From assembly GCA_003167275.1 (NCBI GenBank), contig PMTT01000542.1, positions 1-57,906 on the forward strand: 57,906 nt of DNA. Direction: 5' to 3'. Source of the stretch: Bryobacterales bacterium (GTDB lineage Bacteria > Acidobacteriota > Terriglobia > Bryobacterales > Bryobacteraceae). The notes beneath the pieces are model-generated. The model was not told the DNA's origin. It did not search any database and saw nothing but the letters and a program-made list of their open reading frames with translations. The translations under genes were made by a program, and so were the position numbers. This document shows, piece by piece, positions 26,308 through 44,964 of the stretch. Every line of letters begins with the position of its first letter. The first letter of the stretch is position 1.

Positions 26308-26329
26308 GCTACCGATATTGCGGAATAAC
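26308..26329 (-). repeat. dif-like site copy 0 (inverted orientation): GTTAT-TCCGCA-ATATCGGTAGC
   Basis: The plus strand reads gctaccgatat-tgcgga-ataac. The 11-bp arm is the same as in the five sites at 31.7-45 kb. Confidence 0.7.
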
Positions 26330-26763
26330 GGGCGGGCTGCGAGTAGAAGCTGAAGACCGGTCTTTGTGGCCACAGGCGTCCGAATCGGCGCTGAGGCGGC
26401 GCGACGCCTGGCCGGGCGCAGGTTCGAGCCTCTGATCTCGACCCCGTCAATGCGCCAGCGTTGGTTTTGGGGCTTCCGGCGCTGCGCACGGCGCACACGG
26501 CGGCAGTTTGGCTCCGGCGGCCTGCAAATCGGCGAGCGGCTGGTCTTCACGTCGGCTCCATCGCGCCCCCAGTCGTCGACGAAGCCGTCGGCACCGAGAG
26601 TTCGAACTTGCCTTCGGGTCGAGACCGAGGGAGGAATGTCATAACCGCGGCGCCACCGCGGCGGGAGGTTCCGCACGATGACATCGAAACCCAAAACACG
26701 AGACAATACCGAGCCGACCGCCGCGCCGGCCGCAGAATCGGGGTTGGCAGGGGGGCCAAGGGC

Positions 26764-27024
26764 ATGAAGCTGCCAGTGTACAAGCATCTATTGGACATCA
26801 ACGCTGGTTTCGATCAGGCCATCCGTGCCCTGTCCGCTCTCGGAAAACTGGATTCCTTCCACGGCCGGGAACTGGATCGCCTCACCGCGCTCGTGAAGGA
26901 GACCCGCGCAGCCACGAACTCCTACCTGACCGGTGTACTGGAGCGGGCCGAAACTGCGGAGGCCGGCCAGCGCTTCGGGAAGCGATGGGAGCGAGAGCAA
27001 AAAGAGGAAACCGGTCGCAGGTAG
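26764..27024 (+). CDS. hypothetical small protein
   Basis: MKLPVYKHLLDINAGFDQAIRALSALGKLD... has reasonable composition. The upstream part of ORF 26461-27024 is Arg-rich and implausible. Confidence 0.4.
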   Translation: MKLPVYKHLLDINAGFDQAIRALSALGKLDSFHGRELDRLTALVKETRAATNSYLTGVLERAETAEAGQRFGKRWEREQKEETGRR

Positions 27025-27065
27025 CCCCCACCATACTCTGTGGCTTGGTCCGCTGAGGCCGGTGC

Positions 27066-27515
27066 CTACGACGACACGCGGGAGCGCCGGCTCGATGGCT
27101 TCCGCTGGGACGATTTCCGCTTCGGGGAGCTTCCGGCCGCAAGCCCGTCGAGGGCCTGGATCGTTTCATTTATCGCTTCCCCCTGGAGCCTCAAACGCTT
27201 CGCCAGCCTTTGAAGTTCGAGCGCCCGTTGGGGAGTCTCTGAGTCGCGCTCCATCCGAGACCGCGGATCTCGCTTCGCCGGCTCGTCGCGCGTGGAACCA
27301 TCCTCCAGCCCGGCGAGCAGCTCCGATAGGGTCACCCCGAGCACGCCGGCGACCTTCGACAGGTTGTCGAAGCTGATGTTCTTTTCGCCGCGCTCGACCT
27401 GGCCGATGTACGTTCGGTGGAATCCGCTGATGTGGGCGAATTCCTCCTGTGACCACTTCTTCGCCGCCCGAAGCTCGTGGACCCTCTTGCCCAGTAGTAC
27501 CAGTAGGTCGTTCAC
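27066..27515 (-). CDS. XRE-family helix-turn-helix transcriptional regulator
   Basis: LRAAKKWSQEEFAHISGFHRTYIGQVERGEKNISFDNLSKVAGVLGVTLSELL is a canonical HTH_3 pattern. Confidence 0.8.
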   Translation of the reverse strand: MNDLLVLLGKRVHELRAAKKWSQEEFAHISGFHRTYIGQVERGEKNISFDNLSKVAGVLGVTLSELLAGLEDGSTRDEPAKRDPRSRMERDSETPQRALELQRLAKRLRLQGEAINETIQALDGLAAGSSPKRKSSQRKPSSRRSRVSS

Positions 27516-27658
27516 CTACCAAGAGTCTGGAATCGCGGGGGACGCAATCGCCACAGCCGTTGAATAGCACCGCCGATAGATACCGATTAGTGGTAAGCTG
27601 TGCGGGAACGGCGGGAACCTGGAGACACGCTCTTGCTGGTCAGAAAAGTGGGCCAGAA

Positions 27659-28408
27659 ATGAATCGGATCTACCTGCTGATAGTTCTGCCAATGCTGCTT
27701 ACCTTCACGCTCAGAGCCGACACGATCGAACTCAAAACCGGCGAGCGAATCGACGGGGTCTTCAAGCAAGCCACCGCGGCCGGCGCTGTGATCGAAGTCG
27801 GCGGTCAAGCCATCACGATCGCTTTGGAGAAAGTGAGGGCGATCTACTTTGGGGCCGCCCCTTCCGCCACGGTAACCGGACCGGCTCCGGCGCTGGAAGC
27901 GCTTGACGCGCTTAAGGCACTTAGGTCAGTAACGAATAGCGGAATTACCTACCGTGACTACTCCCAACGGGTGTTGGACGCCAGGGTGAAGGTCGACCGA
28001 TACCTCTCCTCGCAGGGAAGTGTGGGGATCGAACTGCGCAGCGCGGTTCGAGTGTCCATGCTGGAATATGAATTGGCCTCTCAGGCATGGATAACCAAGA
28101 CTGACCCCCCAGCGAATGCAAGCCTATGGAAGTCGATGGGGGTTGCGATGCAAGATCTAGACGTCGCGAAGTGTCCCGTAGTGAAGGCGGCGACCGAGAT
28201 GAACGACAACCCTCCGGCGCCAGCGCCGAGTCGCAAGCGACCCCCTCCCGTCCGCTCAAGTTCAATGGATCGCTCGGAAGGTCTTGGCCTGACGTTGGCC
28301 ATCGCAGAGCGATCCCAATACTGGTCGTTGGGAAGTGTCACTTCGGGCATCTGGGCATGCGCTTCCGCGGAGCTCGCCGAGGCTGAACGTTTGGCTGCCC
28401 AGCACTAG
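27659..28408 (+). CDS. hypothetical secreted protein
   Basis: Signal peptide MNRIYLLIVLPMLLTFTLRA. No domain recognised. Confidence 0.55.
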   Translation: MNRIYLLIVLPMLLTFTLRADTIELKTGERIDGVFKQATAAGAVIEVGGQAITIALEKVRAIYFGAAPSATVTGPAPALEALDALKALRSVTNSGITYRDYSQRVLDARVKVDRYLSSQGSVGIELRSAVRVSMLEYELASQAWITKTDPPANASLWKSMGVAMQDLDVAKCPVVKAATEMNDNPPAPAPSRKRPPPVRSSSMDRSEGLGLTLAIAERSQYWSLGSVTSGIWACASAELAEAERLAAQH

Positions 28409-28511
28409 CCGCTCTGGAGAAGCTCATGTCCTGTCAGCAATGCGGTAAAAGAGATCTTGGAGTCGGACCGATTCTGTTTGGATATTCTTGCAACGCCAAA
28501 GGAGTTCTTGC

Positions 28512-30707
28512 ATGCTGCGACACGAATGCGTTCTTGTTTGTTTTCTGCTCGTAATCGGAGTGCCTGCCGCCAGCGCGCAGTGTTACACGTTTTCGAGCGG
28601 TTCGGCGGCGAGCTTAACCGTTAACATCACCCACCTTCCGCCTCCGACCCAATCGACGGTCGTTCCATGGATATATGACTACTCTTCTGATTCTGGGTTG
28701 GTTGCGGCTGTCAGTCTAAAGGTCGGCCAGACGGTGTATACTCCTGACCCAACGTCCGTTGCTCCCTTGATCGATGTGTCAGTTGGAGACGATCTCAGCT
28801 CCAGTTTCTCCTCAATGGACTTCAACGTGGCCTTTTCCAGCCCGAACTACATCATCGCTGGCGGCCTAGCGTCGGCATACTGGAACGGAAATTATTTTCC
28901 GAACGGCAGTTTGCCAGCTACGCTCCCTTCGCTCTCCAGTGCCCAAGATCCAATTTTGATCGTCAACGTGATCGGTCCATCCGGCGTGATCGTTGACCAG
29001 ACGTATGCGCTGACCTCGGTCACGAGTTGTTCGACTACGCCTCCCCCGCGGAGCCCGTCCCGGATTACCTCCGCGGGTGGATCATTCCAATCGGCAGTCG
29101 TCGGCACCACCTTCGCCTCTCCATTGCAAGCCACGGTTACGGACTCGTCCGGCAATCCCATCAGCGGCGTGACTGTGACGTTCACTGCACCTTTCAGCGG
29201 CGCCAGCGTCACCTTGTCAAGCGGCTCGGCCATTACCAACGCAATTGGTGTCGCGAGCGTTTCGGCAACGGCAAATAACGTGGCGGGCGGCTACTTCATT
29301 ACGGCCACTGTAGGAGCGCTTTCAACGTCGTTCTCGCTGACAAACCTACCTGTTTCGGGGCTTCCCCTCGGTGGCGATCTTGCACAGGGCCAGTTCGCCA
29401 CACAAAGCAGTACCCTGCCAGGTACGCCGCCCGCGAGCGCCGCCGTTGATGGCAACACTGACGGGGCTTTCTTCGATGGATCAGTCACGGCAACGAGCTT
29501 CGAAGCCAACCCCTGGTGGGAGGTGGACCTCGGCTCGCCCCTCGCCATCAGTTCGATTGCGGTCTGGAACCGGACCGATTGCTGCGGCTCCCGGCTCGAC
29601 GACTATTGGGTCTTCGTTTCCAATACGCCGTTTCTGAACACGGATACGCCCGCGATTCTTCAATTCCGGCCTGGAACGTTCGCCAGCCACCAGACCACGG
29701 TGCCAAGCCCTTCCGCGACAATCGCCCTGGGGGTGCAGGGCCGTTACGTGCGAATTCAGCTCAACAATCCCAATTACCTGAGCCTGGCTGAGGTGCAGGT
29801 ATTCGGTGGTGTCAATCTTGGGCAAGGGAAGACCGCGACGCAGAGCAGCACCCTTCCCGGCACACCGGGAGCCGGCGCGGCCGTAGATGGGAACACGGAC
29901 GGCAGCTTTTCCGATGGATCAGTTACGGCCACGAACTTTGACGCCACTCCTTGGTGGCAAGTGGACCTAGGCACTTCCGCCTCTATCAGTTCGATTGTCG
30001 TCTGGAACCGAACAGATTGTTGCGTCGGTCGGCTTAGCGACTATTGGGTGTTTGTTTCCGACACGCCGTTTCTCCCGACCGATAACCCGGCCACGCTACA
30101 GTTCCGTCCGGGGACCTTTGCAAGTCGCGAGACCAGTGCACCTAATCCGTCAACCGCAATTGCGGTTGGAGGGCAAGGGCGTTACGTCCGGGTGCAGTTG
30201 AACACCTCGAACTATCTGAGCCTTGCCGAAGTGCAGGTGGTCGGGATCATGAATGCGTCAAGTAGCAATGACATCGCATTGGGTAAATCTGCGAACCAGA
30301 GCAGCACGCTCCCCGGCACACCGCCAGCCGGAGTAGCCGTGGACGGCAATATCGATGGCAACTTCTTCGACGGCTCTGTTACGGCCACGAACATCGAGTC
30401 CAATCCGTGGTGGCAAGTTGATCTGGGTGCTTCACAAACCGTGAACTCGGTTATGATCTGGAATCGGACGGACTGTTGCAGCTCGCGTTTGGGCGACTAT
30501 TGGGTTTTCGTCTCGAACACACCGTTCCTCGATACGGATACACCTTTGACGCTGGCTTTCAGGCCGGGTACAGCGAGCAGTCATCAAACGGCCGCTCCCA
30601 ACCGGTCCGTGAGCATTCCGTTCGGCATACCCGGGCGTTACATTCGCGTGCAGTTGAACGGCCGCGACTACCTCAGCTTGGCTGAGGTGCAGGTGTCCGG
30701 ACAGTAG
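28512..30707 (+). CDS. secreted protein: Ig-like (Big_1-like) domain plus three tandem F-type-lectin/discoidin-like (galactose-binding-like) domains
   Basis: RBS AAGGAG precedes ATG 28512 and the signal peptide is CFLLVIGVPAASA. The block ATQSSTLPGTP..AAVDGN.DG.F.DGSVTAT....PWW.VDLG...I..I.VWNRTDCC..RL.DYWVFVS.TPF...RY.R.QLN...YLSLAEVQV occurs three times. Confidence 0.8.
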   Translation: MLRHECVLVCFLLVIGVPAASAQCYTFSSGSAASLTVNITHLPPPTQSTVVPWIYDYSSDSGLVAAVSLKVGQTVYTPDPTSVAPLIDVSVGDDLSSSFSSMDFNVAFSSPNYIIAGGLASAYWNGNYFPNGSLPATLPSLSSAQDPILIVNVIGPSGVIVDQTYALTSVTSCSTTPPPRSPSRITSAGGSFQSAVVGTTFASPLQATVTDSSGNPISGVTVTFTAPFSGASVTLSSGSAITNAIGVASVSATANNVAGGYFITATVGALSTSFSLTNLPVSGLPLGGDLAQGQFATQSSTLPGTPPASAAVDGNTDGAFFDGSVTATSFEANPWWEVDLGSPLAISSIAVWNRTDCCGSRLDDYWVFVSNTPFLNTDTPAILQFRPGTFASHQTTVPSPSATIALGVQGRYVRIQLNNPNYLSLAEVQVFGGVNLGQGKTATQSSTLPGTPGAGAAVDGNTDGSFSDGSVTATNFDATPWWQVDLGTSASISSIVVWNRTDCCVGRLSDYWVFVSDTPFLPTDNPATLQFRPGTFASRETSAPNPSTAIAVGGQGRYVRVQLNTSNYLSLAEVQVVGIMNASSSNDIALGKSANQSSTLPGTPPAGVAVDGNIDGNFFDGSVTATNIESNPWWQVDLGASQTVNSVMIWNRTDCCSSRLGDYWVFVSNTPFLDTDTPLTLAFRPGTASSHQTAAPNRSVSIPFGIPGRYIRVQLNGRDYLSLAEVQVSGQ

Positions 30708-30753
30708 CGGCGTGGTGTAGCCGGCACGCCGCAAGCGAGTCTGAGAACCGCGG

Positions 30754-31671
30754 CTACACTCGCAACTTGATCCCGTCGTTGGGCGCGTGGACCAGATCCT
30801 GCTTTGTGCCCAAATAGCGCTCGGTCGTTTGAACCGACGCGTGGCCCAGGAGCAACTGGATCTGCCCCAGTTCTCCGCCGGCCGCCCGACACAACTTCGC
30901 GAAGCTGCGCCTCAAATCGTGGGGGGCAATTCCGGGAACACCAGCGGCCGCCGCATACGGCCGCAAGAGCTGCCAGATGACCTTCTCGGACAAGCGGTCG
31001 CCGCAGACCTCGTCCCCGCGGTTGATGGGGCGGAGTACGTAACCCTCCACGATCCCGGCCGCCGCTGTCCAGGCGTCGATGGCGACCTTTACCCAGGTCG
31101 GCACCGGAATCGTGCGCACCCGCCCGTGCTTTCCGACGAGGTCTACGACGCACCAGCGGTTGTCCCGTTGCTGGATGTGCCTCATCGTCAGGGCGGCCAC
31201 CTCAGACCGTCGAAGCCCGCAGCCCAGGAGGATGGCTAGCATCGCTCGGTCACGCAGTCCCTTCTTGGTGGCGATGTCCGGCGCGCTCAGGAGTCGTTGG
31301 GCCTGTTCCAGGGATAACCAGTTGCCGACCCTTATGCCCTTCGACGCGACGCCCTTTACGCGCGTGATGCCGGCGGCCAGTTCCGGCGCCAGCAACCCGT
31401 TGTCAGCCGCCTCGATCGCGAGCTTCCGGACGGCGGTGATCCGGACGTTGATCGAGACGGACCCGAGCCCGCGGCTCTCAAGGACGACGCGCCAAGCGTT
31501 CACGGCCGCCTTCGTGAAGCCTGGCCGAGCTTCCTGGCCGAACCAGGAAATAAACTCGTCCAGGCCGAGGTTGTAGACCCTTCGGGTAATCGGGGAGGAA
31601 ACGCTGTCAAGGACCAACGCCTTCAGCCGGTGGAATTCGTTGTTCTGTGGAACCACAATCAAATCAGTCAT
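30754..31671 (-). CDS. XerC/XerD-like tyrosine recombinase
   Basis: 305 aa. Motifs are GCGLRRSEVAAL (Arg), APHDLRRSFAKL (HxxR) and LLGHASVQTTERYL (His...Tyr). dif-like site 1 lies directly upstream of its RBS. Confidence 0.9.
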   Translation of the reverse strand: MTDLIVVPQNNEFHRLKALVLDSVSSPITRRVYNLGLDEFISWFGQEARPGFTKAAVNAWRVVLESRGLGSVSINVRITAVRKLAIEAADNGLLAPELAAGITRVKGVASKGIRVGNWLSLEQAQRLLSAPDIATKKGLRDRAMLAILLGCGLRRSEVAALTMRHIQQRDNRWCVVDLVGKHGRVRTIPVPTWVKVAIDAWTAAAGIVEGYVLRPINRGDEVCGDRLSEKVIWQLLRPYAAAAGVPGIAPHDLRRSFAKLCRAAGGELGQIQLLLGHASVQTTERYLGTKQDLVHAPNDGIKLRV

Positions 31672-31680
31672 TTAGGTCCT

Positions 31681-31702
31681 CTTAATGGGCATTATCGGTA
31701 GC
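31681..31702 (+). repeat. dif-like site copy 1: CTTAA-TGGGCA-TTATCGGTAGC
   Basis: Read directly. It starts 10 nt upstream of the recombinase ATG (31671) and overlaps the RBS region. Confidence 0.7.
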
Positions 31703-31946
31703 TACGTCATGTGGACACTACCTCGGAGCCGCGGGGTACATCAAGTCAATAGTCGCAGACCGGTGCTCCCGGAACAGAGCTCCCAAAACGACGGGTCGTG
31801 AGGGGAATGACCGATTACTGGTGGGCTGTTCTCGCCAGGAATTGACTCGCGGCTGGATCGGCGCTCTGTCCGAGTCGCGCGTAACCCAGCCAGAACTGCG
31901 TTGGTCGAGGTCGACGAGCGGCCCTTGCATAGAGCTTATCCGAGAC

Positions 31947-31990
31947 GTGGGCGCGGAGGGACTCGAACCCCGGACCTCCTGCGTGTGAAA
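31947..31990 (-). repeat. decayed tRNA 3'-half-like segment (anticodon loop to acceptor; Val-CAC-like)
   Basis: The reverse complement is CTTTCACACGCAGGAGGTCCGGGGTTCGAGTCCCTCCGCGCCCA. The T-loop TTCGAGT and acceptor 3' strand are present, but there is no matching 5' half or D-arm and the T-stem is imperfect. Confidence 0.6.
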
Positions 31991-32374
31991 GAGCGGCGTC
32001 GTCTCCAACGGCTCTTTTGGTTCTTACCTTCTGCTGTTGCTTCCAATGATCTGAAGCACCTGCTGTTGCCGGACGAATAAAGCTAATGCCCCCAACGATC
32101 CGGATTTTTGCACAGTTCTGACACGGTCCGAGAGCGGCAATCAATGCCGTTAAGCGGAGCGGGGAGTCCGGCCTTGTAGAGGGCATCGAACTATCGATAA
32201 TGTGGAGGAACCGGAGAGCCCGCGTCGGACAAGCCAGCGTGGGGTCCATGGACTTCCTTCTTTTTGCGCGTTAGCGGGCATCGAACAATACCGTGGGTAT
32301 TCCCGACGGCGGCAGATAGCCGGGTTGGGCTTTGAGATAACATCATTGATAGGCTTGGTCTAAAGAAACGGTGC

Positions 32375-33268
32375 ATGCTGACGCGGCATCCGCCGGAGGC
32401 GAATGGTGTGAACCTTAAATCCCTGTTGCGAGAATCGGACGAGATGACCGTTCAGCAGTGGCAGGCGTTTTTTCACGGGGTGTATGGTGCCCGAAATGAA
32501 GAACGCTTCCCGGCAGAATACGGCCTTTCGCGGATGTGGTTGCATTTGGTACAAGATATGGCGGCGCTGGCAAAGGGTATTCGCAAAAATGACGTCGCCC
32601 GGATGCTTCGGATGCTGCCACGCCTGTTTTGCTGGCTCTGCGGTTTTTGCACGAAGGCTGGATTTGAACTCGAAGAAATCGTGTGGCACTTCTTCCCGTA
32701 TGTCTGCCCAACATGTTGGAGTCCGACGTGTGCGTGCGGCGCCAACAAGAGGGTGTTTAGAGACGCGCCCCAGAAGGACGAAAAGACCTTGGCCGAGTTT
32801 AGGGAGGCGAACGCCGAGAAACGGCCTTCGACGCTTGATGGATTCGTCGTTATGTTTGCAGATGTGTATGGAAACCACTCCGAGTCGGGGAATCTGACCG
32901 ATGTCTACCTGCATTTCAGCGAGGAGGTTGGAGAAGTCGCCGAATGGATCAGAGTCGTCGAGAGCCTGAGTGATGGTCGGTCAGAAGCTCAGCAAGGTCT
33001 TACTTCAGAACTTGCCGACGTGTTTTCCTGGATGTGCAAATTGTGTTGGCGGATTAACTGCAATCTGCAAGGCTTCGGACCTTGGGCGGAGCACCAGTTC
33101 GGTAACGCGATTGATCAACGGCGGTTTGAAATTCGCTTTGCAGCCATTACCTCCCTGCAGTATGGTAATGGCTGCCCGGGTTGTGGACAGGCCGTTTGCG
33201 CAAGACAGTGCGAGGGATGGGACACTCGTTTGGCTAAGGCCAGCCATCAGGGCGGGGTGGTGGATTGA
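32375..33268 (+). CDS. tandem MazG-like (all-alpha NTP pyrophosphohydrolase) protein, each half followed by a Cys cluster
   Basis: The second half has the MazG signature LHFSEEVGEVAEWIR ... LTSELADVFSWMCKL. The first half aligns (LHLVQDMAALAKGIR) but lacks the acidic residues. The Cys clusters are CPTCWSPTCAC and CPGCGQAVCARQC. The start could instead be the downstream MTVQQW. Confidence 0.65.
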   Translation: MLTRHPPEANGVNLKSLLRESDEMTVQQWQAFFHGVYGARNEERFPAEYGLSRMWLHLVQDMAALAKGIRKNDVARMLRMLPRLFCWLCGFCTKAGFELEEIVWHFFPYVCPTCWSPTCACGANKRVFRDAPQKDEKTLAEFREANAEKRPSTLDGFVVMFADVYGNHSESGNLTDVYLHFSEEVGEVAEWIRVVESLSDGRSEAQQGLTSELADVFSWMCKLCWRINCNLQGFGPWAEHQFGNAIDQRRFEIRFAAITSLQYGNGCPGCGQAVCARQCEGWDTRLAKASHQGGVVD

Positions 33269-33320
33269 CGGGAACGTGAACAAATCAGCGAAGCTCTTTT
33301 CGCGCCTTTCTCCGACCAAT

Positions 33321-35576: not shown

Positions 35577-35775
35577 TCGCTAATCTCCGGGCAGCAAACG
35601 CTGGCGAGGTCATGGTATATCCGACGCATCAGGCGTGAATACCCAGTTCAGCCCTCAATACCTATTGTGGCACGCCCGAGATCCTAGCCGCGATTCGGCA
35701 GTTGGCACTGCCGACTATGGATGATGGCCCCGTGGGCCTTTAGAAGCTCCCTAGCGGTCTCTTAGCCCTAGCGAT

Positions 35776-36255: not shown

Positions 36256-36383
36256 CGGATCTAACCTTACGACAGGTTTTGACACAGTCCAGCCGAACTG
36301 AAGGGGTTTTGGCGCAGTTTGTGTGAAAGCTTGAACCGCAGCCGGCCGATTAATCTAATAAACTATTTAGAATCAAGTGAAGA

Positions 36384-36428
36384 TGGTGGGCGCGGCAGGA
36401 CTCGAGCCTGCGACCTCCTGCGTGTGAA
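36384..36428 (-). repeat. tRNA 3'-half-like segment ending in CCA (Val-CAC-like), imperfect direct repeat of 31947-31990
   Basis: The reverse complement is TTCACACGCAGGAGGTCGCAGGCTCGAGTCCTGCCGCGCCCACCA. The T-stem GCAGG/CCTGC is perfect but the T-loop is CTC rather than TTC, and no 5' half is present. Confidence 0.65.
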
Positions 36429-36757
36429 CCAGACGTTCGAACTTAAGGTCAGCCCTGAACGGCGGGCATTCAAGCGTGCCGGGCGCGGTAGCGGTCGTAC
36501 CACCTGAGGCGAATTGGACGAGCCTCAGATAGTTGAAAGAGCTAAATCGCATCAAGAACTAGGCACCAGACAAGACGGCGGTTCTGGGACGCGTGAATAG
36601 CGCTTTGAGTGGATCGTCGGCCACTCGGAGAATGGTCCCAGCGGAAGGCCGGGCCCGCGAGTCGCCATTCCTGGCGAGAAATCCCCTTGCCGCCAGCAAA
36701 TCACAAGCGCACGCATCGTGCCGGGCCAACCGTCCCGTACCGAGCACACTGCACCTT

Positions 36758-36779
36758 GATATCCGTCAATATCGGTAGC
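36758..36779 (+). repeat. dif-like site copy 2: GATAT-CCGTCA-ATATCGGTAGC
   Basis: Read directly in a region with no convincing CDS. Confidence 0.7.
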
Positions 36780-37013
36780 CCCAAGCCTTGTGACGATGAG
36801 GACCGGGCCCAACCGCATTCGTCTTCCGAGTGGTGCGTAAACGGCTCGGAACTGAACAAGCGGGTGCCAATTCACCCGTTTGGCCACGAGGTGTCAATTG
36901 AATTAACTCGGTATGATCCACCAAGCGCTGCGCGAAAAGCTCTCGCTCCGAATTATCTTTTCGTCGTTCCGCGCGATGTGGGCGACTGGATACTGGCAGC
37001 CCGCTGGAACCGT

Positions 37014-37535
37014 CTAGTGTTTGCGAATGGCGATCAGGAGGCCGAAGCTTACGCCGATTGATCTCTCATGCCCTCGTCCAAAGTTGTATTCATAGCCCGG
37101 TTCAACGTACCAGCCAAATTTGTGCTTCCACCGCCCAGGCCAGAACATGAAGTCCAGGACTGCTTCCCCAGCGACTGAATTCGTTGTTGTGCCGGACTCT
37201 CTTGTGTGAATCCACTCTGGGCCCACGCCGGCCATGAACTCGACTGTGCGCGAAAGCGTCCAGGGCTTCTTGAACAAAAAGTCGCTCGCCCATTCTGTTG
37301 TGTGGCGCCCGAAGCTGGGGGTCACTCCCGCCTCAAGTTCCAGCCAGTTCTCAATCGGGGTGACCTCAACGGCGACCGTGGGTCCAAAGCTCGACGTGCG
37401 GTCTTTCAGATTCCGGCTCGGAGCTGCGCCAATCTCGATAACGGCCACCTCCTCCGCATCCTTTTTCTCCTGCGCCGATGCGTATCCGAGGTAGAGAAAA
37501 AGTGATGCTGCACAGAGCCATTTTTTGGCGTTCAT
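37014..37535 (-). CDS. hypothetical secreted protein, possibly a small beta-barrel/OMP-like protein
   Basis: Signal peptide MNAKKWLCAASLFLYLGYASA. Alternating aromatic/Gly-rich segments (GWYVEPGYEYNFG, GVSFGLLIA) follow. Confidence 0.6.
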   Translation of the reverse strand: MNAKKWLCAASLFLYLGYASAQEKKDAEEVAVIEIGAAPSRNLKDRTSSFGPTVAVEVTPIENWLELEAGVTPSFGRHTTEWASDFLFKKPWTLSRTVEFMAGVGPEWIHTRESGTTTNSVAGEAVLDFMFWPGRWKHKFGWYVEPGYEYNFGRGHERSIGVSFGLLIAIRKH

Positions 37536-37711
37536 GATGAGCTTCCAATTTACCGGATCGAGCTCTTCACAACAACTAGAGGCTTAGGAAGCACAACTGG
37601 CGGCTTTTCGGGTTTGGCGGCCGAGCAAATTTAGGACGGAATTTGCGACTTGCGATGTGGTTTGGATTCGGAATGGATCGTCGCCCCTCGAGAATGCCAC
37701 CTGCGACTTGA

Positions 37712-38110
37712 CTATTGTCGATTGGCGTCGACGAGCATCTGCCGCGCCTGGCAGCATCGCACGACGTCCTCAATCTGCAGATCGTATCCAGGGTCGTCGA
37801 ATATGCTCCACACGGCGTCCGGATCCTCTGGCATCTGGTCCACCAGCGCGTTCAGTTGTGCGCGGTGTTCAAGATCGCAGGCGGCGGCCAGCGCCTTCAT
37901 GTAGGCATGGAACTCTGTGGGCCGGGCATCGTAGGTGGCGAGCATCTTGGCGGCGAAGGCGACAGGATCGACGCCGGCCTTGACGCGCTTCCATCGCTTC
38001 CAACCGTTGCCCTGGTTCCGCAATACGGCGCCGTCGCTCATGACCGCCACTCGGCAATCGCTGTACTCCGTTCGGGCCAACTCCGCTCCGTGTTCGTTCA
38101 GTCTCGCCAT
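37712..38110 (-). CDS. hypothetical protein
   Basis: 132-aa ORF with balanced composition. No domain recognised. Confidence 0.5.
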   Translation of the reverse strand: MARLNEHGAELARTEYSDCRVAVMSDGAVLRNQGNGWKRWKRVKAGVDPVAFAAKMLATYDARPTEFHAYMKALAAACDLEHRAQLNALVDQMPEDPDAVWSIFDDPGYDLQIEDVVRCCQARQMLVDANRQ

Positions 38111-38740
38111 CCGCTTGCTCCTTGCGCCGTCTACGCATCACGATTGATCACTCCTCAGAGAGAGGAAAGCAAGCAGAATCTTATAGTTACAGCCTTTCTT
38201 GAAGGGCGTTATGCGCTGATATCGGCAGCTTCACCGAACACGGAGGGCGAGCCCAGATCGGTACCGCTCTTTCCGAGCAGCGCGTAATTCGGCCGGAGCA
38301 GTTTCAGCCATCTTCCCGAAGGCCGACTGGTCCGCTGGGGATCTTCTCCGCGGCCTCGGAGCGCAAGGGACGAAGTGTTCTTCCTCGGCTCGTTGGCTTA
38401 TCGGGATGCTTCCCGCTCTCCTCAACCTTTGCGCCGGGGTGGGTATGCTCTATGCCGATGACCGGTTCTTGTGGCGCTCCTGGGGAGCGCGCGATGGCTT
38501 CTCACGGAGAGCTACTCGTATGCCGTGAGCATAGCGCTGGTCCGGAAGTGGCCCGCACGCCGGAGAACAGCCCGTTGACGATTCGCGCGCATGTCGGAGA
38601 CGATTCCCTGCAACGTCTCGCCGTACGCGATGGCGTGATTGACCGTCGTCCCGCCAATCGAGAACGAGACCACGTCGCCCGCGATGGGAGCCCCGGAAAA
38701 GCCTTCGAAGCGGAGCGCCGGGGGAGTTCTCTGCCAAGCA

Positions 38741-39307
38741 CTACCAGAACTTCCACCATGGTTTGGTCTTTGGGGCGTGGCCGCGCAAACTCGGAAGCGC
38801 TTTGTCCACGTCCCGGTATTGCTGTGCGATTTGGCCAAGCTCATTGACGGTCACTACGCGCCCGAGTTGAGGATCATAGGCTACATACCCGCGTTCTTCT
38901 CGACATGCGTTAAGACAACATCTGATGCATTCCATCAGTTGGGTTGTGGGTTCCCGAAAATACGGCATCGTTATGGACGCCATCCGTTCGTAGACCGCAA
39001 ATTGAATTTGGAGATCATCATCGTTCAATTCAATCCACGGCAGAGCCGATGCGGGCTGAAATTGGACGAATGATGGCCAGCGCGTCCTGATCACCTCCGC
39101 AAGCTGCTGCATTGTCGCGCGAGTGGAGTCGGGTAGTGATCGCTTTACCCGGTCATTGATATCCGCAATCTCGCTCTCCTCGCGGTGTATTAGTTGCTCG
39201 TACGCGGCCTCGGGTTCGACACCTTCAGGAATGCTGAAAAGCCTCAGATCATAGCTCACGGGTTTGCAAGTCCCTCCAGGTCTCAGCATTCCACAGTTTG
39301 TCGTCAA
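38741..39307 (-). CDS. hypothetical protein
   Basis: 188-aa ORF with acidic, non-biased composition. The start is uncertain. Confidence 0.5.
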   Translation of the reverse strand: MTTNCGMLRPGGTCKPVSYDLRLFSIPEGVEPEAAYEQLIHREESEIADINDRVKRSLPDSTRATMQQLAEVIRTRWPSFVQFQPASALPWIELNDDDLQIQFAVYERMASITMPYFREPTTQLMECIRCCLNACREERGYVAYDPQLGRVVTVNELGQIAQQYRDVDKALPSLRGHAPKTKPWWKFW

Positions 39308-39479
39308 CGCCGGGCGCCCGTTCTGTCGGGGACAAAAAAGGTTCCACTGTACCAGTTGGCTTGAACGACGTGGTGATCAAGATCGTTCGTCAATGCGGCC
39401 CCCGATTTAACCCCCGATTATGAATCTCCGAACATTTAATCGCGCTCCGGCACCGAGCGGCGGGGGGCGCGCTGGCCAC

Positions 39480-39501
39480 GATATCGTCTGTTATCGGTAG
39501 C
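39480..39501 (+). repeat. dif-like site copy 3: GATAT-CGTCTG-TTATCGGTAGC
   Basis: Read directly between the 38741 gene and the PrpD-like gene. Confidence 0.7.
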
Positions 39502-39865
39502 AGTCGCGGCCCTCGTGCCTTGCCACCGAAGCCAACGAGATCGGAAGCTTTGTACGAGTGGGCGGCGCTTCCAAGATTGTTACTCAGTTGCCACAGAAAC
39601 CTCTTGCGCTCCCCGCCGCTGTTGTTCAAAATGATCGTGCGTGGTCTTGGTTGACCGCGGCGCCACCGCAGCGGATCGGGCAGAGATTGGCCGGTTATGC
39701 CGAAGATCCGGACACTATCCACTAGCTACCAGGACCTTAAGCCCAATGCGTACCTGCGGCGCCAGAGGTGCAAGGGATTGAATCATTCGGCGCTGTGAAA
39801 CCTGCCGGTAGTATACAGCGTGACAGTGCACCGGTATTCATCATCCGGATATTCCAGTCCGACCA

Positions 39866-41401
39866 GTGATATCATCGTCGGTGGCTTCTAGCAAGGAAAA
39901 GGTGGCTGATGTGATCGACAGGAAGAAGACTTCCCGCCGCAGCATTTTCGCCGGAATTGCAGCACTCGTCGTGCACGGCCTTGCGCGAAATGGGCGGGCC
40001 GCCGAAACCCGGCCATTGGCGGAAAGACTGGCCGCCTACGCGGCTGCGCTGCGTTACGAAGATCTCGATGCCGCCACCATCGAGCGCGTCAAATCGCATG
40101 TCATCGACACGCTCGGCTGCGGCATCGCTGCCTTCGATGAGCGGCCCGTGCGCGTCTGCCGCGACATTGCACAGAGCGTGCAAGGAGGCGCCACCATCAT
40201 TGGCACGACGCGCAAGACTTCTCCCGATCTTGCCGCTTTCGTCAATGGCGCTGCGAGCCGGTATTACGATCTGAACGACACCTATGTCGGCAGAATGGCC
40301 AGCCGAACGGCCAGCCACCCGAGCGACCATATCGCCCCGTGCCTTGCCGTCGCTGAATGCGAAGGCGGACGCGGCCGTGACCTCATCACGGCGATTGTGC
40401 TTGCCTACGAGATCGATTGCCGCCTGGTGGACGCTCTCGATATCAACTCGCGCGGCTGGGACGCACCGGTGTTCAGTCTTCCGGCGGTAGCGCTCGCAGC
40501 CGGCAAGCTAATGATGCTGGATGTGGGGAAGCTGACCGAGGCGGTCAACATCGCGATCAACGATCACATTTCCATGGGACAGACGCGTAGGCAGGTGCTC
40601 TCTGACTGGAAGGGCCTCTCGGATGGCGAAGCCTCGCGCAACGCCGTGTTCGCGGCGATGCTGGCGCGCGGCGGCCTGACCGGACCGGCGCCGATTTTCG
40701 AGGGCATACTCGGCCTATTCCAGCAGGTCTCGGGAGTGGCGAGTATCGACGTGACGAAATTCGGCGGCCCTAGCAATCCGTTCCGCATCAATCAATGCGG
40801 CATGAAGGCCTATCCTGCGGTGATATACGGCCAGACCGCGATCGTCGCGGCCACGGCGATCGCCGATGAGGTGACCAAGCTTTCGCCCGACAAGCCGGCA
40901 GCGCTCGAACGAATCACCTCCATCGAAGTTGCTACGTCAAAGACCGGGCTGGTGCAGACCGGTACCGATCGCGAGAAGTGGGCGCCCGTGACGCGCGATA
41001 CCGCCGATCATTCCTTGCCCTACCTCACAGCGCGCGCCATGTTTGATGGCGACATCAACAATGAAAGCTACGCGCAGGCGAAGTTGAAGGAACCGCGCAT
41101 CCTCGCCTTCATGCAGAAGATTACAGTCGTGGAAGATCCGGTGCTCACCGCCCGGTCCGGTGACGCCGTGCCGACGCGCATAACCGCGATTTTGGCGGAT
41201 GGGCAGCGCTTCAGCAGAGAAGTCAACGACCTCCCTGGCTTTGCCCGCAGGCCAATGCAAAGACCGGAGGTCGACCGCAAATTCCGCGGCAACGTCGCCA
41301 AGCGCTGGCCGCGCGAGAAAACCGATGCCGTTCTCCGATCACTCTGGGTGCTGGAGAACACGCAGGACATCGGCGCGCTGCTTGCGGCGCTGACGGTTTG
41401 A
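39866..41401 (+). CDS. MmgE/PrpD-family protein with a Tat-like N-terminal signal
   Basis: LAAYAAALRYEDLDAATIERVKSHVIDTLGCGIAAFDE is typical of MmgE/PrpD. The N-terminus KKTSRRSIFAGIAALVVHGLA looks like a twin-arginine signal. Confidence 0.8.
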   Translation: MISSSVASSKEKVADVIDRKKTSRRSIFAGIAALVVHGLARNGRAAETRPLAERLAAYAAALRYEDLDAATIERVKSHVIDTLGCGIAAFDERPVRVCRDIAQSVQGGATIIGTTRKTSPDLAAFVNGAASRYYDLNDTYVGRMASRTASHPSDHIAPCLAVAECEGGRGRDLITAIVLAYEIDCRLVDALDINSRGWDAPVFSLPAVALAAGKLMMLDVGKLTEAVNIAINDHISMGQTRRQVLSDWKGLSDGEASRNAVFAAMLARGGLTGPAPIFEGILGLFQQVSGVASIDVTKFGGPSNPFRINQCGMKAYPAVIYGQTAIVAATAIADEVTKLSPDKPAALERITSIEVATSKTGLVQTGTDREKWAPVTRDTADHSLPYLTARAMFDGDINNESYAQAKLKEPRILAFMQKITVVEDPVLTARSGDAVPTRITAILADGQRFSREVNDLPGFARRPMQRPEVDRKFRGNVAKRWPREKTDAVLRSLWVLENTQDIGALLAALTV

Positions 41402-41523
41402 GGTGTCGCTGAAAGACGGGCGTTCCGTCCGCCGGCTGAAATGCGCTACGCCGTGTTCCCATTTACTTCGGCATCGGAAGATCCGGATAGGGGATGAATG
41501 ACGCGCGACTCGGACAGAGCCAT

Positions 41524-41545
41524 GATAAGAGGGAATATCGGTAGC
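41524..41545 (+). repeat. dif-like site copy 4: GATAA-GAGGGA-ATATCGGTAGC
   Basis: Read directly between the PrpD-like and receiver genes. Confidence 0.7.
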
Positions 41546-41601
41546 TTCCTCAGACCGGGAGCCCGTCCGCCCGCCGCTGAAGTGCAGCCCGCAGTTCCCG
41601 C

Positions 41602-42045
41602 ATGCCCCAGTCGGTCATGCCGGAACCGATCTTTCGCAAGGGAGTCGAACAGCCATTGCGGATACTGGTGGCCGAATGTGAACCCGCTCAGAGCATGATC
41701 GCCTGGCTCGAAGAGCAAGGACACTCGGTCAGCCTCGTGCAGGACGGCCAATCGGCATTGGATGCTCTGGAGCGTGAACTGTTCGATGCCGCCTTGATCG
41801 CCATCCAGATCCCCGTGAGGAACGGCTACGAAGTAACTCGAACGATACGGGAGCGCGAGCGCAAACGCGCCTGCCGGCGTGTTCCCATGATCGCCTTGAT
41901 CGCTGACCCGATGAAGGGCGATCGGGAAATCTGTCTGGAAGCCGGACTCGACGACTGTCTTCCCAAGCCCGTCAAAACTCAGGGGCTTGAATCGATGTTG
42001 AACTCACTGCCGTCAGGCGTCTTCAGGCGCGCTGAGTGCGCCTAA
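41602..42045 (+). CDS. stand-alone receiver (CheY-like) domain lacking the phospho-acceptor Asp
   Basis: The receiver pattern is LRILVAECEP...FDAALIAIQIPVRNGYE...MIALIAD...LPKPV. The acidic pair reads EC instead of DD, and the acceptor position reads A (LIAIQIP instead of L.D..MP). Confidence 0.7.
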   Translation: MPQSVMPEPIFRKGVEQPLRILVAECEPAQSMIAWLEEQGHSVSLVQDGQSALDALERELFDAALIAIQIPVRNGYEVTRTIRERERKRACRRVPMIALIADPMKGDREICLEAGLDDCLPKPVKTQGLESMLNSLPSGVFRRAECA

Positions 42046-42335
42046 TGATGGGCGAGTTGAAGACAGCACAGCAGAGGGGTGTCGACGAACCAGCTCGCGT
42101 TGCCAAGATCAGCCCCACAACTCTCTACCGCTGGATGAAGGACCTGGAGTTCGACCGAGCCTACCGGGCGGCACGGCGCGCCACGTTTTCGCAATCGGTC
42201 GCTCGCTTGCAGCAGGCTGCCCGCCCGGCGGCTGCAGTCCCGCGAGGCCAGCCGACGCTACCAGCGGAGCGAAAGGGGCCGACACTGTCACCTGCAGCGG
42301 CAGCGTCGCTAACCGGCACCGCCAGGCCCACGTGA
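42036..42335 (+). pseudogene. partial, inverted paralog of the HTH gene at 46408-46803
   Basis: ISPTTLYRWMKDLEFDRAYRAARRATFSQSVARLQQAA parallels ISVATLLRWQKLPEFKKAYMEARRAAHGQSIARLQQAT. The remainder is Pro/Ala-rich and non-homologous. Confidence 0.45.
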
Positions 42336-42486
42336 CTCATCAGGGTGGCGGAATGATCGCTATGTCGCTGCCCCGGCGCCGGTCGGTCGTCAGCCGCTGC
42401 ACGGTCTGCGGCAGGCTAAGCCCCTGGATTGACCCCTATCCAAAGGTCCCGAGACGGAGGTGATCCCTGACGGGGTCGACTCGTGT

Positions 42487-42748
42487 TCAAAAAGCGACGT
42501 TTCTACGTGATCGCCAACATATAGCCCGCCGCATCAAGGCTGCCCGGAGTTCACTCATCGTCCATCCAAACGCCCGTCCCATCACCTCGGCAAGGCTCTC
42601 GTTCCCCTCGGGCACGAACCCCTTGCTGGCGAGCCAGCGTGCGATCGTCTGGCGCCGGCGACGGGCACGGATGCGTCGGCTGCTTCCACGCAAGCGTCCG
42701 ATTTAAGCGGTGTGGGCGTCGCCTGATTGCCTTGTTAGTGCCTACCAC
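42487..42748 (-). pseudogene. frameshifted copy of the small RRLxxLE-family gene at 44964-45206
   Basis: 126 bp (42521-42646) are identical to 44983-45108. A 1-nt insertion (gcgatcGtctgg vs gcgatctctgg) then splits the reading frame into ORFs 42487-42693 and 42551-42748. Confidence 0.7.
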
Positions 42749-43117
42749 GATCTGCCTTTCCTGGCCGGTTTCGATGATTGAACCGGTCGCCTATGGCGGA
42801 TTACGTCGGCAAGCGTTAGGCCGAGCAGGGACTCGGGCTTCGTCCGCACCACTCCAGGCGGCTGGCAGCCAGCTACTGCGCCCGCATAGGCCCCACGCAC
42901 GAGGGGCGGCACGGCGCCGCCGAATGGCTTCGACCGCCGCCACCTGTTCCCTGCGCCTGCGAGTGATGATTTCCAACGGGCAAAGAGAAGGTCTGACGCA
43001 TTCAGAAGACGTACCCAAGGGGACGTCTAGAGGCGATTCGTGCTAGTCTCTAGACCAAGATCCAACCGGACAGCACGCCGCGGACGCTGGCAAGACCAGC
43101 GAGCGTGCTGGCCCTAC

Positions 43118-43750
43118 ATGGGTCAAGTTCCCTTGTTTGATAACCTTCGGTACATCAATATGGACCTCGACGAACAAGACTGGTCTTCTGTTGAGATGAC
43201 GCCTCGTGCACGCCAACGATACGATAGATTTCTGGCTCAATACAGACGATACTTAAAGAAGGTACAGGAGTTTCCACTGGCGCTCTTGGTTTGGGGGCCA
43301 GGGCCGTCTGGCGGCGACCTGTATAGGAAGCGCTTGGAGATTCGGGCGCAGCTCCGGGACCGAGGTTTCGCTGCAGTGTTCAGCGAGGAGGTGGAACGAG
43401 ACTGCCCAGTGCCAGATATGTCTTTGAGAGTGAAGGAACTCCTACAACTTTGCTCCGCCGATCTGGTTGTGGTCATCCAGGCGTCATTCGGTTCCGTTGC
43501 GGAAGTCCACGATTTCGCCAGCCTAGGACAAGCAATTGGAGGGAAATTGATGATCTTCATAGATAGCACGGTCGTGGGCGGGTACAGTAGTTTGGGGGCG
43601 CTAAGGGAACTTGGCCTTCAGTTCGGGAACGTTCACTATTTTGAGTATCCGAAAGACGTTGTGGAGTGTCACTTGTCGAGGAAAGTAATCGAACGGGCTG
43701 AGGCACTGCGACATGCAGCTTGGCAAAGAAAGAATCTGAAGAATCTGTAG
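43118..43750 (+). CDS. NDT/SLOG/TIR-class Rossmannoid domain protein (putative effector)
   Basis: LALLVWGPGPSGGDLYRKRLEIRAQLRDRGFAAVFSEE ... ADLVVVIQASFGSVAEVHDF aligns by eye with the NDT-like protein at 35776 (LYWAGPLF...; DVMVVVLDG...SGASLEAG). This includes the conserved Glu. The start (43118 vs 43160) is uncertain. Confidence 0.5.
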   Translation: MGQVPLFDNLRYINMDLDEQDWSSVEMTPRARQRYDRFLAQYRRYLKKVQEFPLALLVWGPGPSGGDLYRKRLEIRAQLRDRGFAAVFSEEVERDCPVPDMSLRVKELLQLCSADLVVVIQASFGSVAEVHDFASLGQAIGGKLMIFIDSTVVGGYSSLGALRELGLQFGNVHYFEYPKDVVECHLSRKVIERAEALRHAAWQRKNLKNL

Positions 43751-43761
43751 AATAGTCGACC

Positions 43762-44883
43762 ATGGATCCGGACGACCTCTTGCTATATTACGCACGGAAC
43801 AGACTAGTAATTGAAGTCGCTAAGGACGCTCTGCATTTGTTCCTCTTGGACTATCTTGCGGCTTATGGCCCGCTATCTTACGGTCAGGTTTTAGCCGATA
43901 TCTTCATGGACCAGCATAAAGCATCATCAATCCTTAATGATCTGTTGGGTGCGGGCCTTGTGTCCGCGCGCGACGATTCTTGGGTTGTTTCGCGCCATGG
44001 CAAGAATCTGCTCGGCCAGTTACTCGAATCATCCGTACCAGAGCAAGATTCGGGGCAAAGCGAGCAAACTCTTAACGATAATCGCAGCAGGTATCCCGGT
44101 ACGGAACGCGCTCCAAGAACTCCGGACAGAACCGATGTGACACAACCCGAGGGTTATGTGCACTCCATCAATGAGGGCGCTGCGTTGGCGACCAGCATTA
44201 AGGTAGAGTCGCTCTTAGAAAAATGCTGGCTGCAGGTTTCCTACATTCTGGATGCGCTCGGAAACACCCGGACAGATCGGGGCGAAGCTCTGCCTCAAGG
44301 AACGTTCGGGAAGTTTCGAACTTCCGAAGAGGGCGGCAAGCTAATCTTCAATATCGTAATACCCAAGGGCTTTCCCTCCTCCTGGTTGCGGAGCATCGGT
44401 ATCGACCGTCCGGACTGTTCGTTACGGGCCGGTGCGGAAGAGTCGGGAGATCCGGAACATCATATATTGAAAATCTCGCTCGACCAGTTTCCGCCGGCTA
44501 TGAAGGAACACCTCGATTTCTTCCGGATTGTGGAGAATAGCATTGGTGTGGTGGATGATCTTCTCGACCCGAGGGCCTTTTTTGGCTATGGCTTATACTC
44601 CGCGTCTGTTAAGGGAGACAATTACGTTTTCAGAATTCCTGCGGATATTAGCTTTCGTCCGTTCGCCGCCTTTATCGGAATCGACCGCAAAAAGGTAATT
44701 CGGGAAGCCGTGGTCGATGAAGCGGGTGTGGCCGTTTGCGATCAGCGGGACATTCCTTTGCATAGCTTCAGCGTGGCCATTGCTTCCGTGCGAAACCATT
44801 TCGCGGCCCAATCAGCCCAAGACATAGATGGGCCTCCCGACACCAGAGTTACTCATACAACTCACATCACACTGACTAACTAA
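43762..44883 (+). CDS. hypothetical protein with an N-terminal winged-helix-like domain
   Basis: LFLLDYLAAYGPLSYGQVLADIFMDQHKASSILNDLLGAGLVSARDDSWVVSRHG looks like a wHTH. The ~250-aa C-terminal region is unassigned. The gene lies 12 nt after the upstream stop. Confidence 0.55.
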   Translation: MDPDDLLLYYARNRLVIEVAKDALHLFLLDYLAAYGPLSYGQVLADIFMDQHKASSILNDLLGAGLVSARDDSWVVSRHGKNLLGQLLESSVPEQDSGQSEQTLNDNRSRYPGTERAPRTPDRTDVTQPEGYVHSINEGAALATSIKVESLLEKCWLQVSYILDALGNTRTDRGEALPQGTFGKFRTSEEGGKLIFNIVIPKGFPSSWLRSIGIDRPDCSLRAGAEESGDPEHHILKISLDQFPPAMKEHLDFFRIVENSIGVVDDLLDPRAFFGYGLYSASVKGDNYVFRIPADISFRPFAAFIGIDRKKVIREAVVDEAGVAVCDQRDIPLHSFSVAIASVRNHFAAQSAQDIDGPPDTRVTHTTHITLTN

Positions 44884-44942
44884 CGGATCGATCTGGCAGT
44901 CGGTGATATGACTGACTAGTGATACCGCCCGAACAGCCTGGC

Positions 44943-44964
44943 GTTATCTCTACATATCGGTAGC
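44943..44964 (+). repeat. dif-like site copy 5: GTTAT-CTCTAC-ATATCGGTAGC
   Basis: Read directly at the 3' end of the 44964-45206 gene. A degenerate relative (ttctac-gtgatcgccaac) lies at the equivalent place next to the other repeat (~42501-42518). Confidence 0.7.

Follow-up and report, generated by a model that had tools for sequence, protein, structure and literature searches.

To our knowledge, two mechanisms are known by which gene cassettes are stockpiled and swapped through site-specific recombination, namely integrons and the Xer-site modules of Acinetobacter plasmids. In integrons, the attC sites at the cassette ends are imperfect inverted repeats of 57-141 bp (R''-L''...L'-R'), the integrase IntI has a specific extra domain, and the cassettes are promoterless, carry mostly a single open reading frame (ORF) and are co-oriented with the promoter of the platform. 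The pdif sites on the Rep_3 plasmids of Acinetobacter are 28 bp long and have an 11-6-11 geometry with one conserved and one variable arm, and many of them, with diverse 6-bp spacers, are present in one replicon (PMC13141974, PMC11705084). Their inner motifs follow the rule ATAA-CR-TTAT (PMC11705084). It has been shown that pdif sites recombine only when their spacers are identical or nearly so; the modules carry accessory genes, including those for toxin-antitoxin, resistance or defence functions, their exchange has been proposed to proceed via cointegrate formation and resolution, and the backbone module lies between two sites of inverse orientation (PMC13141974, PMC11705084). Here we describe a stretch of 57,906 nucleotides from a soil bacterium of the Bryobacterales (Acidobacteriota; contig PMTT01000542.1, positions 1 to 57,906; hereafter the window), in which short dif-like sites lie in an array beside the gene for a Xer-like tyrosine recombinase of 305 amino acids (aa). 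The sites and their arrangement are real and conserved, and the interpretation that agrees best with the sequence comparisons is a site-specific cassette platform of the Xer-like kind. The closest known system is that of the Acinetobacter pdif modules, and the layout looks like an undescribed platform for gene-cassette exchange with a logic akin to that of these dif modules and of integrons. In the literature we found no paper naming the site or such arrays in Acidobacteria, and the motif string gave no relevant match.

Sites of the window and the adjacent recombinase

The 10-mer TATCGGTAGC is present seven times in the 57.9-kb window, both strands counted, whereas 0.05 copies are expected from dinucleotide-preserving shuffles and none of 100 shuffles reached seven copies. 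The preliminary description of this DNA had reported the same number, and the positions that it gave are correct. It had also reported that six copies share an extended architecture, and six of the seven indeed carry a left arm, a 6-nt spacer and the conserved right arm. The remaining exact copy (8050-8059) has no left arm and lies within a pyridoxal-dependent decarboxylase gene, and it was rejected as a coding coincidence. A relaxed caller, in which up to two mismatches in the 10-mer were allowed and WTAW at the right distance and a W preceding the 10-mer were required, recovered the six known sites and one more with the orientation of the array (site 2b, with one mismatch), which had been overlooked. 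This caller is specific, since it found 150 sites in 1.3 Mb of related loci as against 2 in shuffled versions of the same loci. The window total is seven structured sites of 23 bp with the form CGWTAW-N6-WTATCGGTAGC, and no spacer is common to any two of them. All seven are intergenic with respect to Pfam-supported ORFs and to public gene calls on identical contigs (gene calling based on the GC content of third codon positions had no discriminating power in the window). The earlier statement that four of the array copies fall between gene modules thus holds. The start of the recombinase-proximal site is 9-10 nt upstream of the ATG of the recombinase, and the site overlaps with the ribosome-binding region, AAGAGGA; the inverted site 0 together with the proximal site bounds a 5.35-kb segment containing an XRE gene, a lectin gene and the recombinase gene. 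Both points are as had been described.

This arrangement recurs in 79 homologous recombinase loci from Bryobacterales genomes, whose counts are not fully independent. A site about 22 nt upstream of the recombinase start codon and on the opposite strand was found at 57 of the 79 loci, as in the window, and 34 of the 79 have additional co-oriented upstream sites. On the downstream side of the recombinase, at a distance of 3-10 kb, 18 of the 79 loci have an inverted site of the same variant as site 0, with the spacer TCCGCA or a close one. With the relaxed caller, 111 upstream sites had the array orientation and 4 the opposite one, and downstream of the recombinase 21 sites were inverted and 7 were not; the sites tend, therefore, to face the recombinase with the variable arm and to point outward with the invariant arm. 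Likewise, among the matches listed in a metagenome scan for array-type sites, contigs with multiple sites were co-oriented in 27 cases versus 7. The upstream site density stays flat out to 10 kb, which means that the arrays often exceed the stretches examined. Three classes of site can be told apart: the proximal class, TCTTAA-TGGGCM-WTATCGGTAGC, with its left arm over the ribosome-binding site; the array class, CGWTAW-N6-WTATCGGTAGC, with variable spacers; and the inverted far-side class, CGWTAT-TCCGCA-WTATCGGTAGS. In a position profile of 254 non-proximal sites, which is partly inflated, the conservation covers 23 bp plus three weak positions per side. This corresponds to a dif-like 11-6-11 geometry that extends weakly to about 28 bp, and there is no extended inverted repeat of the attC kind. 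The geometry proposed at the outset, with one strong and one degenerate arm as in dif sites, is borne out by this profile and by its invariant WTATCGGTAGC arm.

The 305-aa recombinase has the catalytic R, K, HxxR, H and Y all in place in an alignment to XerD (1a0p), and E. coli XerD is its best solved relative. It scores far below the cut-offs of the named families, with 120 bits for the NCBIfam model of XerC (cut-off 335), 112 for XerD (cut-off 330), 56 for XerS (cut-off 267), and 38.6 and 16 for the integron integrase models TIGR02249 (cut-off 265) and NF011946 (cut-off 435), and no insertion of the IntI type was seen in the alignment to XerD. It is thus, as far as its sequence tells, an active-looking Xer-like enzyme outside the named Xer and IntI families; the first characterization of it as XerC/D-like is right about the kinship, with the qualification that it stays under the XerC, XerD and IntI family cut-offs. 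There are thousands of homologs with 72-91% identity, chiefly in Bryobacteraceae and other Terriglobia from soil and peat, and the gene is multi-copy: a single 5.56-Mb chromosome (OY970385.1) has five or more loci, of which four are located within 125 kb, and the copies lie inside variable regions. No relatives were found on viral contigs. Relatives with 50-54% identity are present on plasmids of cultured Acidobacteriota and Deinococcus. On the Paludibaculum fermentans plasmid pPfer1, a 54%-identical recombinase adjoins parA and has no array, and about 35 nt upstream of its start there is a single, nearly symmetric dif-like site (5975-6000; GTTCTATAA-TGATCG-TTATAACAC). This relative with one leader site suggests that the ancestral state was a resolvase with its cognate site in its own leader. 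The organism is cultured and tractable.

Homology breaks, cargo and spacer alleles

The cargo near the recombinase is almost never common to two loci, whether compared at the DNA or at the protein level, and where homology does exist it breaks at the sites. In the loci L035 and L044, the flank on the side of the variable arm is homologous right up to the site and the sequences are unrelated past the invariant arm. In the loci L043 and L046, 3423 bp of sequence match with 95% identity; this segment begins at the outer edge of a site (7488) and extends as far as the recombinase stop codon, and on either side of it the two loci are unrelated. When all site pairs were compared, homology restricted to a single flank typically had its end in the last nucleotides of the 200-nt left flank (nt 196-200) or its start in the first ones of the right flank (nt 1-4). 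The preliminary description had staked its proposal on cassette boundaries coinciding with the sites in related genomes, and it is at the sites that the homology is lost.

The spacers behave as alleles. Among 91 non-proximal sites from the genome loci there are 51 distinct spacers and 107 identical pairs, compared to about 2 identical pairs expected under a composition null and about 10 (maximum 27) under a position-specific null; with the metagenome sites added, the collection reaches at least 317 sites and 145 spacers. Pairs of sites with the same spacer are enriched about 15-fold for homology of the left flank and about 18-fold for homology of the right flank. The possibility that the spacer travels with one flank, as with a single crossover point, was rejected because the left and right flanks behave alike. 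Since 279 of 329 same-spacer pairs share neither flank, the spacer is bound to neither side and is kept when both flanks are replaced. This pattern is the expected outcome of a classical exchange of two strands between sites whose overlaps match. Two alleles of the window are found elsewhere: GCGCTG of site 2b is also present in L091, where the flanks are unrelated, and CGTCTG of site 3 in L090 and L105. As a separate observation, the allele CGTTAA-CGTCCC-A occurs at L025 (5959), L035 (3053) and L044 (7154) with no flank homology on either side, and its left arm and spacer lie within a longer palindrome (GGACGTTAACGTCC).

The order of the spacers is also conserved. Two or more non-proximal alleles are common to 12 array pairs, as against 1.06 expected by chance, and all 12 are collinear, these collinear groups coming from a limited number of metagenome-assembled genomes (MAGs) and samples and amounting to few independent observations. 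The DNA between the matching sites of these pairs is unrelated, with a median shared fraction of 0 and a maximum of 0.19. An example of such an order, from chained contigs, is proximal, GCGGCA, CTGGTG, TTCGTA, CCGGCA, GACCTG, GGTTCG, TTGGAA, CACCTC. The data suggest that a scaffold of mutually incompatible sites is conserved and that its cargo would be replaceable.

Proposed mechanism and rival explanations

The elements are probably the core recombination sites of the single adjacent Xer-like recombinase, with spacers that would serve as compatibility labels and slots that would hold exchangeable cargo. In the mechanism that we propose, each element of 23-28 bp would consist of a variable arm facing inward, a 6-bp overlap region and the invariant outer arm WTATCGGTAGC in an 11-6-11 geometry, and the 305-aa recombinase would bind and cut these sites. 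Two sites would exchange strands if their spacers match, and in most cases the partners would belong to different arrays or molecules. Each exchange would swap the flanks and keep the spacer, and the outcome would be a stable, ordered scaffold of mutually incompatible sites. As no two sites in the window have the same spacer, the array would be internally stable and its cargo would be exchanged only with other arrays. A more far-reaching and tentative proposal, which we regard as possible although somewhat doubtful, is that the arrays are sets of addressable slots, the cargo of each slot being replaced independently by double site-specific exchange with other arrays; the arrays would then add a third type of platform to integrons and pdif modules and would be nature's equivalent of recombinase-mediated cassette exchange.

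Beyond the proximal site there is a conserved block of about 45 nt, compared at 46 loci, in which the hexamers TTGATG and TAAKGT are conserved and the approximately 17 nt between them vary; in the window the -35-like TTGATG (31739-31744) and the -10-like TAGTGT (31715-31720) are 18 nt apart. From this sequence pattern we infer that the block may be a promoter from which transcription would pass through the site and on into the recombinase gene, in which case recombinase bound at the leader site could bring about autoregulation. A leader hairpin, AGGTCC...GGACCT, around the proximal site was considered and rejected, two of its pairs being invariant and covariation being absent.

Measured against the pdif modules, the platform is alike in having its recombinase module between inverted sites, in spacer alleles that recur with reassorted flanks, and in sites (CGWTAW-N6-WTATCGGTAGC with weak extensions to about 28 bp) that qualify as pdif sites by their form. 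It differs in that a dedicated, single, multi-copy Xer-like recombinase with a leader site is encoded beside the sites and would take the place of the housekeeping XerC and XerD that act in Acinetobacter. Moreover, consecutive array sites are direct repeats instead of alternating as C/D-D/C, only the recombinase module having inverted bounds; the platform lies on a chromosome or integrative island in Acidobacteriota; its arm sequence is unrelated; and the spacer order is conserved across arrays. The likeness to integrons lies in the tyrosine recombinase that is divergent from a co-oriented array and has a site by its start (57 of 79 loci; 111 sites to 4), in the very diverse cargo of mostly unknown function, and in arrays without a nearby recombinase, as in clusters of attC sites lacking integron-integrases (CALINs). 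Unlike in integrons, the recombinase falls outside IntI, the sites are short core sites of double-stranded DNA instead of folded attC hairpins, the cassettes are multi-gene with genes on both strands, the conserved block faces the recombinase and not the array, and the order of the spacers is conserved. The initial impression that the locus resembles integrons and pdif modules without being either is therefore upheld by the family scores of the recombinase, the absence of attC and the lack of alternating site orientation. In XerS/difSL an asymmetric site reportedly lies immediately beside the recombinase gene. With this system, with XerH/difH and with plasmid multimer-resolution recombinases the platform has in common one Xer-like protein and an asymmetric dif-like site adjoining its gene; the known single-recombinase systems, however, have one site per replicon and resolve dimers, whereas here there are many sites, many copies and variable cargo. 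It is set apart from XerC/XerD-dif by the equivalog scores, by the number of sites and by the five or more recombinase copies in one chromosome, and from shufflons (Rci-sfx, hsdS) by sites that are intergenic, mostly direct and between unrelated whole genes instead of in alternative 3' segments.

A dif-like geometry would also be expected if the housekeeping XerC and XerD of the host used the sites, as they do in integrative mobile elements exploiting Xer (IMEX) and in pdif modules, the 305-aa recombinase being a passenger of the resolvase type with its own leader site. The inner WTAW-N6-WTAT agrees with the dif rule ATAA-CR-TTAT, the plasmid relative is located in a maintenance region like a multimer resolvase, and only 3 of 120 motif-anchored metagenome stretches, among the matches listed, contain the recombinase. 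What makes this explanation unlikely is that the identical outer arm is present in the recombinase leader at 57 of 79 loci, that the polarity of the sites is set relative to the recombinase gene, and that this gene is multi-copy and inside variable regions. Acidobacterial dif sites have been predicted with Firmicutes-type dif profiles (PMC3025954); that the outer arm of these predicted sites is unlike CGGTAGC is our own reading and is not stated there. An integron-type mechanism, in which circles are excised and inserted at the proximal site by single-strand exchange regardless of the spacer, with the variable arm and spacer as the analogue of attC, would account for the divergent recombinase with a site by its start and a co-oriented array, for the hypervariable cargo, and for the pair L152/L205, in which one spacer is found with the left flank kept and the right flank changed. 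This is nonetheless quite improbable, given an IntI score of 39 bits against a cut-off of 265 without the IntI insertion, sites of 23-28 bp lacking an attC-like extended inverted repeat, and multi-gene cassettes in both orientations. Spacers are, furthermore, tied no more to the left than to the right flank, 85% of same-spacer pairs sharing neither, and free insertion at one site would scramble the conserved spacer order.

Two further explanations are, in our view, very unlikely. The sites could be scars of accretion, left when integrative elements inserted repeatedly at one att site and their integrases were later lost, as in arrays resembling cis-mobilizable elements (CIMEs). Short-core direct repeats between gene blocks, in an array that is itself within a mobile island, are in line with such a history, but accretion duplicates one att core and here neighbouring sites differ in their spacers; the blocks of 1.3-5 kb contain no integrase remnants; the same platform with the same polarity and ordered spacer alleles is found in many genomes; and the island integrase uses a tRNA-Ala att site and not the site motif. 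The sites could, on the other hand, be operators for a transcription factor, either the XRE neighbour or the recombinase acting solely as a repressor, with no recombination involved. That the inner arms are palindromic (CGATAT-N6-ATATCG) and that the sites are intergenic, one of them over the ribosome-binding site of the recombinase, would suit an operator. The invariant outer arm is asymmetric, however, and an operator requires neither the strict polarity across kilobases nor the homology breaks at the sites nor the non-random, ordered spacers.

Several observations weigh against our preferred reading of the sites as core sites of the adjacent recombinase. The main weakness in tying them to the 305-aa enzyme is the low recombinase count seen from the side of the motif, since among the matches listed the recombinase was present in 3 of 120 motif-anchored metagenome stretches and in 0 of the 15 that were 10 kb or longer, so that many sites must lie more than 5-10 kb from any recombinase copy or in arrays without one. 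This would mean that the arrays are long, that arrays lacking a recombinase are common, or both; long arrays are suggested by the chained scaffolds and by the flat site density. The association of the motif with the recombinase that had been proposed earlier is therefore supported by fixed position and strict polarity at the 79 loci and weakened by the count from the motif side. Many of the 79 loci come from the same few MAGs, and the 254-site profile owes part of its sharpness to metagenome sites chosen with the pattern itself. No recombination products were seen, whether circle junctions, deletions or inversion variants, and there were no strain-level array variants among the three other public contigs with an identical recombinase (L001-L003), which have the same array as the window. 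The homology between L043 and L035 ends at the far edge of the promoter-like block and not within the site, an outcome that does not fit easily with simple insertion at the proximal site. A scan of the block with the sigma-70 consensus called no promoter, the match to the E. coli -10 element being poor. Finally, the closest homologs of the kinase-HD gene of cassette A (55-73% identical) are on contigs of 3.5-6 kb without sites, these contigs being short.

Leader block, enclosing island, cassette genes and biological meaning

The promoter-like block was also met with away from its usual place. A displaced block was considered as a signature of cassette insertion and rejected, there being two cases, L059 (MITE-like) and L042 (IS110-type), and neither of them a site-specific product. 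In L059 (295-545), the proximal site is split by an insert of about 240 bp that has terminal inverted repeats of 10 bp (ACCGGCCAAT / ATTGGCCGGT); the insert looks like a miniature inverted-repeat transposable element (MITE) rather than a cassette, possibly with a TGCCC duplication. In L042 (12960-13110, minus strand), an IS110-family-like transposase gene (MEMHTIGIDLGK...) comes directly after a copy of the block plus the initial bases of the invariant arm (GCTA), and it appears that an insertion sequence (IS) has inserted in or beside a site. Mini-cassettes of about 150 nt are present in L028 (15389-15580) and L012 (19980-20160), each composed, in this order, of a TCAGCA-type site, a conserved element of about 50 nt, about the first 25 recombinase codons, a proximal-type site and, last, the promoter-like block. 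They resemble second platforms that have been truncated and that face the intact one. The element of about 50 nt (GGCAACAYTGGTMGCGG...GCGCAACGTGGGC) is also found after inverted sites in L014, L015 and L026. In the short contig L186 (1187 bp) the first slot is nearly empty, the recombinase start, proximal site and block being followed by about 45 nt and a GACGTG-type site, and the recombinase gene is apparently truncated. No Rfam families were found in the region.

The array is inside a 37.7-kb island at tRNA-Ala. The 3' part of the tRNA gene is repeated exactly, over 55 bp and in direct orientation, at the two ends of the island, and the two repeats remain nearly identical for about 30 bp past the exact part (Table 1). 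Other genes of the island encode DUF3854/DUF927 primase-helicase-like, DNA methylase, DUF3489 and DUF6900 proteins. The platform itself is thus cargo of a conventional integrative element, which gives it a route for spread. The cassettes of the window have 1-5 genes each, on both strands. The MazG-like, kinase-HD and nucleoside 2-deoxyribosyltransferase-like genes of cassette A recur jointly, with about 66% nucleotide identity, on unrelated metagenome contigs (L206, L208), and this triad (32408-36255) is possibly a defence system directed at nucleotides. Just beyond the island (10421-12673, minus strand) another Ser/Thr kinase is encoded, which is fused to TPR repeats and is unrelated to the kinase-HD protein. 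In L003 (6-1761) the PrpD-family gene is split into ORFs of 417 aa and 164 aa by a frameshift or an assembly error, the array being otherwise identical.

Table 1. Features of the window with their positions and strands
Feature	Position	Strand	Remarks
Distal att repeat (tRNA-Ala 3' copy)	15879-15933	+	55-bp exact repeat with 53624-53678
Island integrase, 431 aa	16108-17403	-	Pfam Phage_integrase 9e-16; unrelated to the Xer-like recombinase
Site 0, inverted	26308-26330	-	CGTTAT-TCCGCA-ATATCGGTAGC; far-side boundary of recombinase module
Recombinase module between inversely oriented sites	26331-31679		86-aa ORF, XRE helix-turn-helix (HTH) gene, 249-aa gene, F5/8-type-C lectin, recombinase (Pfam, gene calls)
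XRE HTH gene	27066-27515	-	Recombinase module (Pfam/gene calls)
F5/8-type-C lectin	28488-30707	+	Recombinase module (Pfam/gene calls)
Xer-like tyrosine recombinase, 305 aa	30754-31671	-	Pfam Phage_integrase 3.4e-22
Recombinase-proximal site	31680-31702	+	TCTTAA-TGGGCA-TTATCGGTAGC; left arm overlaps ribosome-binding site
Conserved promoter-like block	31703-31745	-	Putative recombinase promoter
Cassette A	31746-36756		144-aa ORF, MazG-like, Ser/Thr-kinase-HD fusion, nucleoside 2-deoxyribosyltransferase-like
MazG-like gene	32408-33268	+	Cassette A
Ser/Thr-kinase-HD fusion	33321-35576	-	Cassette A; kinase domain matches PD-T4-6/mad6 defence models
Nucleoside 2-deoxyribosyltransferase-like gene	35800-36255	+	Cassette A
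Array site 2	36757-36779	+	Spacer CCGTCA
Cassette B1	36780-38206		Two small genes of unknown function, 37014-37535 (-) and 37712-38110 (-)
Array site 2b	38207-38229	+	CGTTAT-GCGCTG-ATATCGGCAGC, one mismatch
Cassette B2	38230-39478		172-aa gene of unknown function, 38741-39259 (-)
Array site 3	39479-39501	+	Spacer CGTCTG
Cassette C	39502-41522		MmgE/PrpD-family gene, 39911-41401 (+)
Array site 4	41523-41545	+	TGATAA-GAGGGA-ATATCGGTAGC
Cassette D	41546-44941		Receiver-domain gene, small HTH-like gene, three genes of unknown function, all +
Array site 5, last in window	44942-44964	+	Spacer CTCTAC
Proximal att repeat and tRNA-Ala(GGC), island right end	53624-53703	-	ARAGORN (tRNA 53628-53703), repeat

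If the sites are indeed the core sites of the adjacent recombinase, the principle of the Xer-site modules would turn out to operate also in another phylum, on chromosomes and integrative islands, with a dedicated recombinase and in directly repeated, ordered arrays. Should the addressable-slot proposal also be true, such a platform would be served by a dedicated single Xer-like recombinase, would be spread on integrative islands and would be abundant in soil Acidobacteriota. The compact recombinase, the site of 23-28 bp and the many natural heterospecific spacers would make it a potential tool for genome engineering. For the organisms themselves, exchange at these sites would offer an explanation for the hypervariable regions of abundant and poorly studied Acidobacteria of soil and peat, and, with thousands of close homologs of the recombinase in metagenomes and a cargo of genes whose function is mostly unknown, candidate defence genes among them, the arrays would mark a large reservoir of accessory genes.

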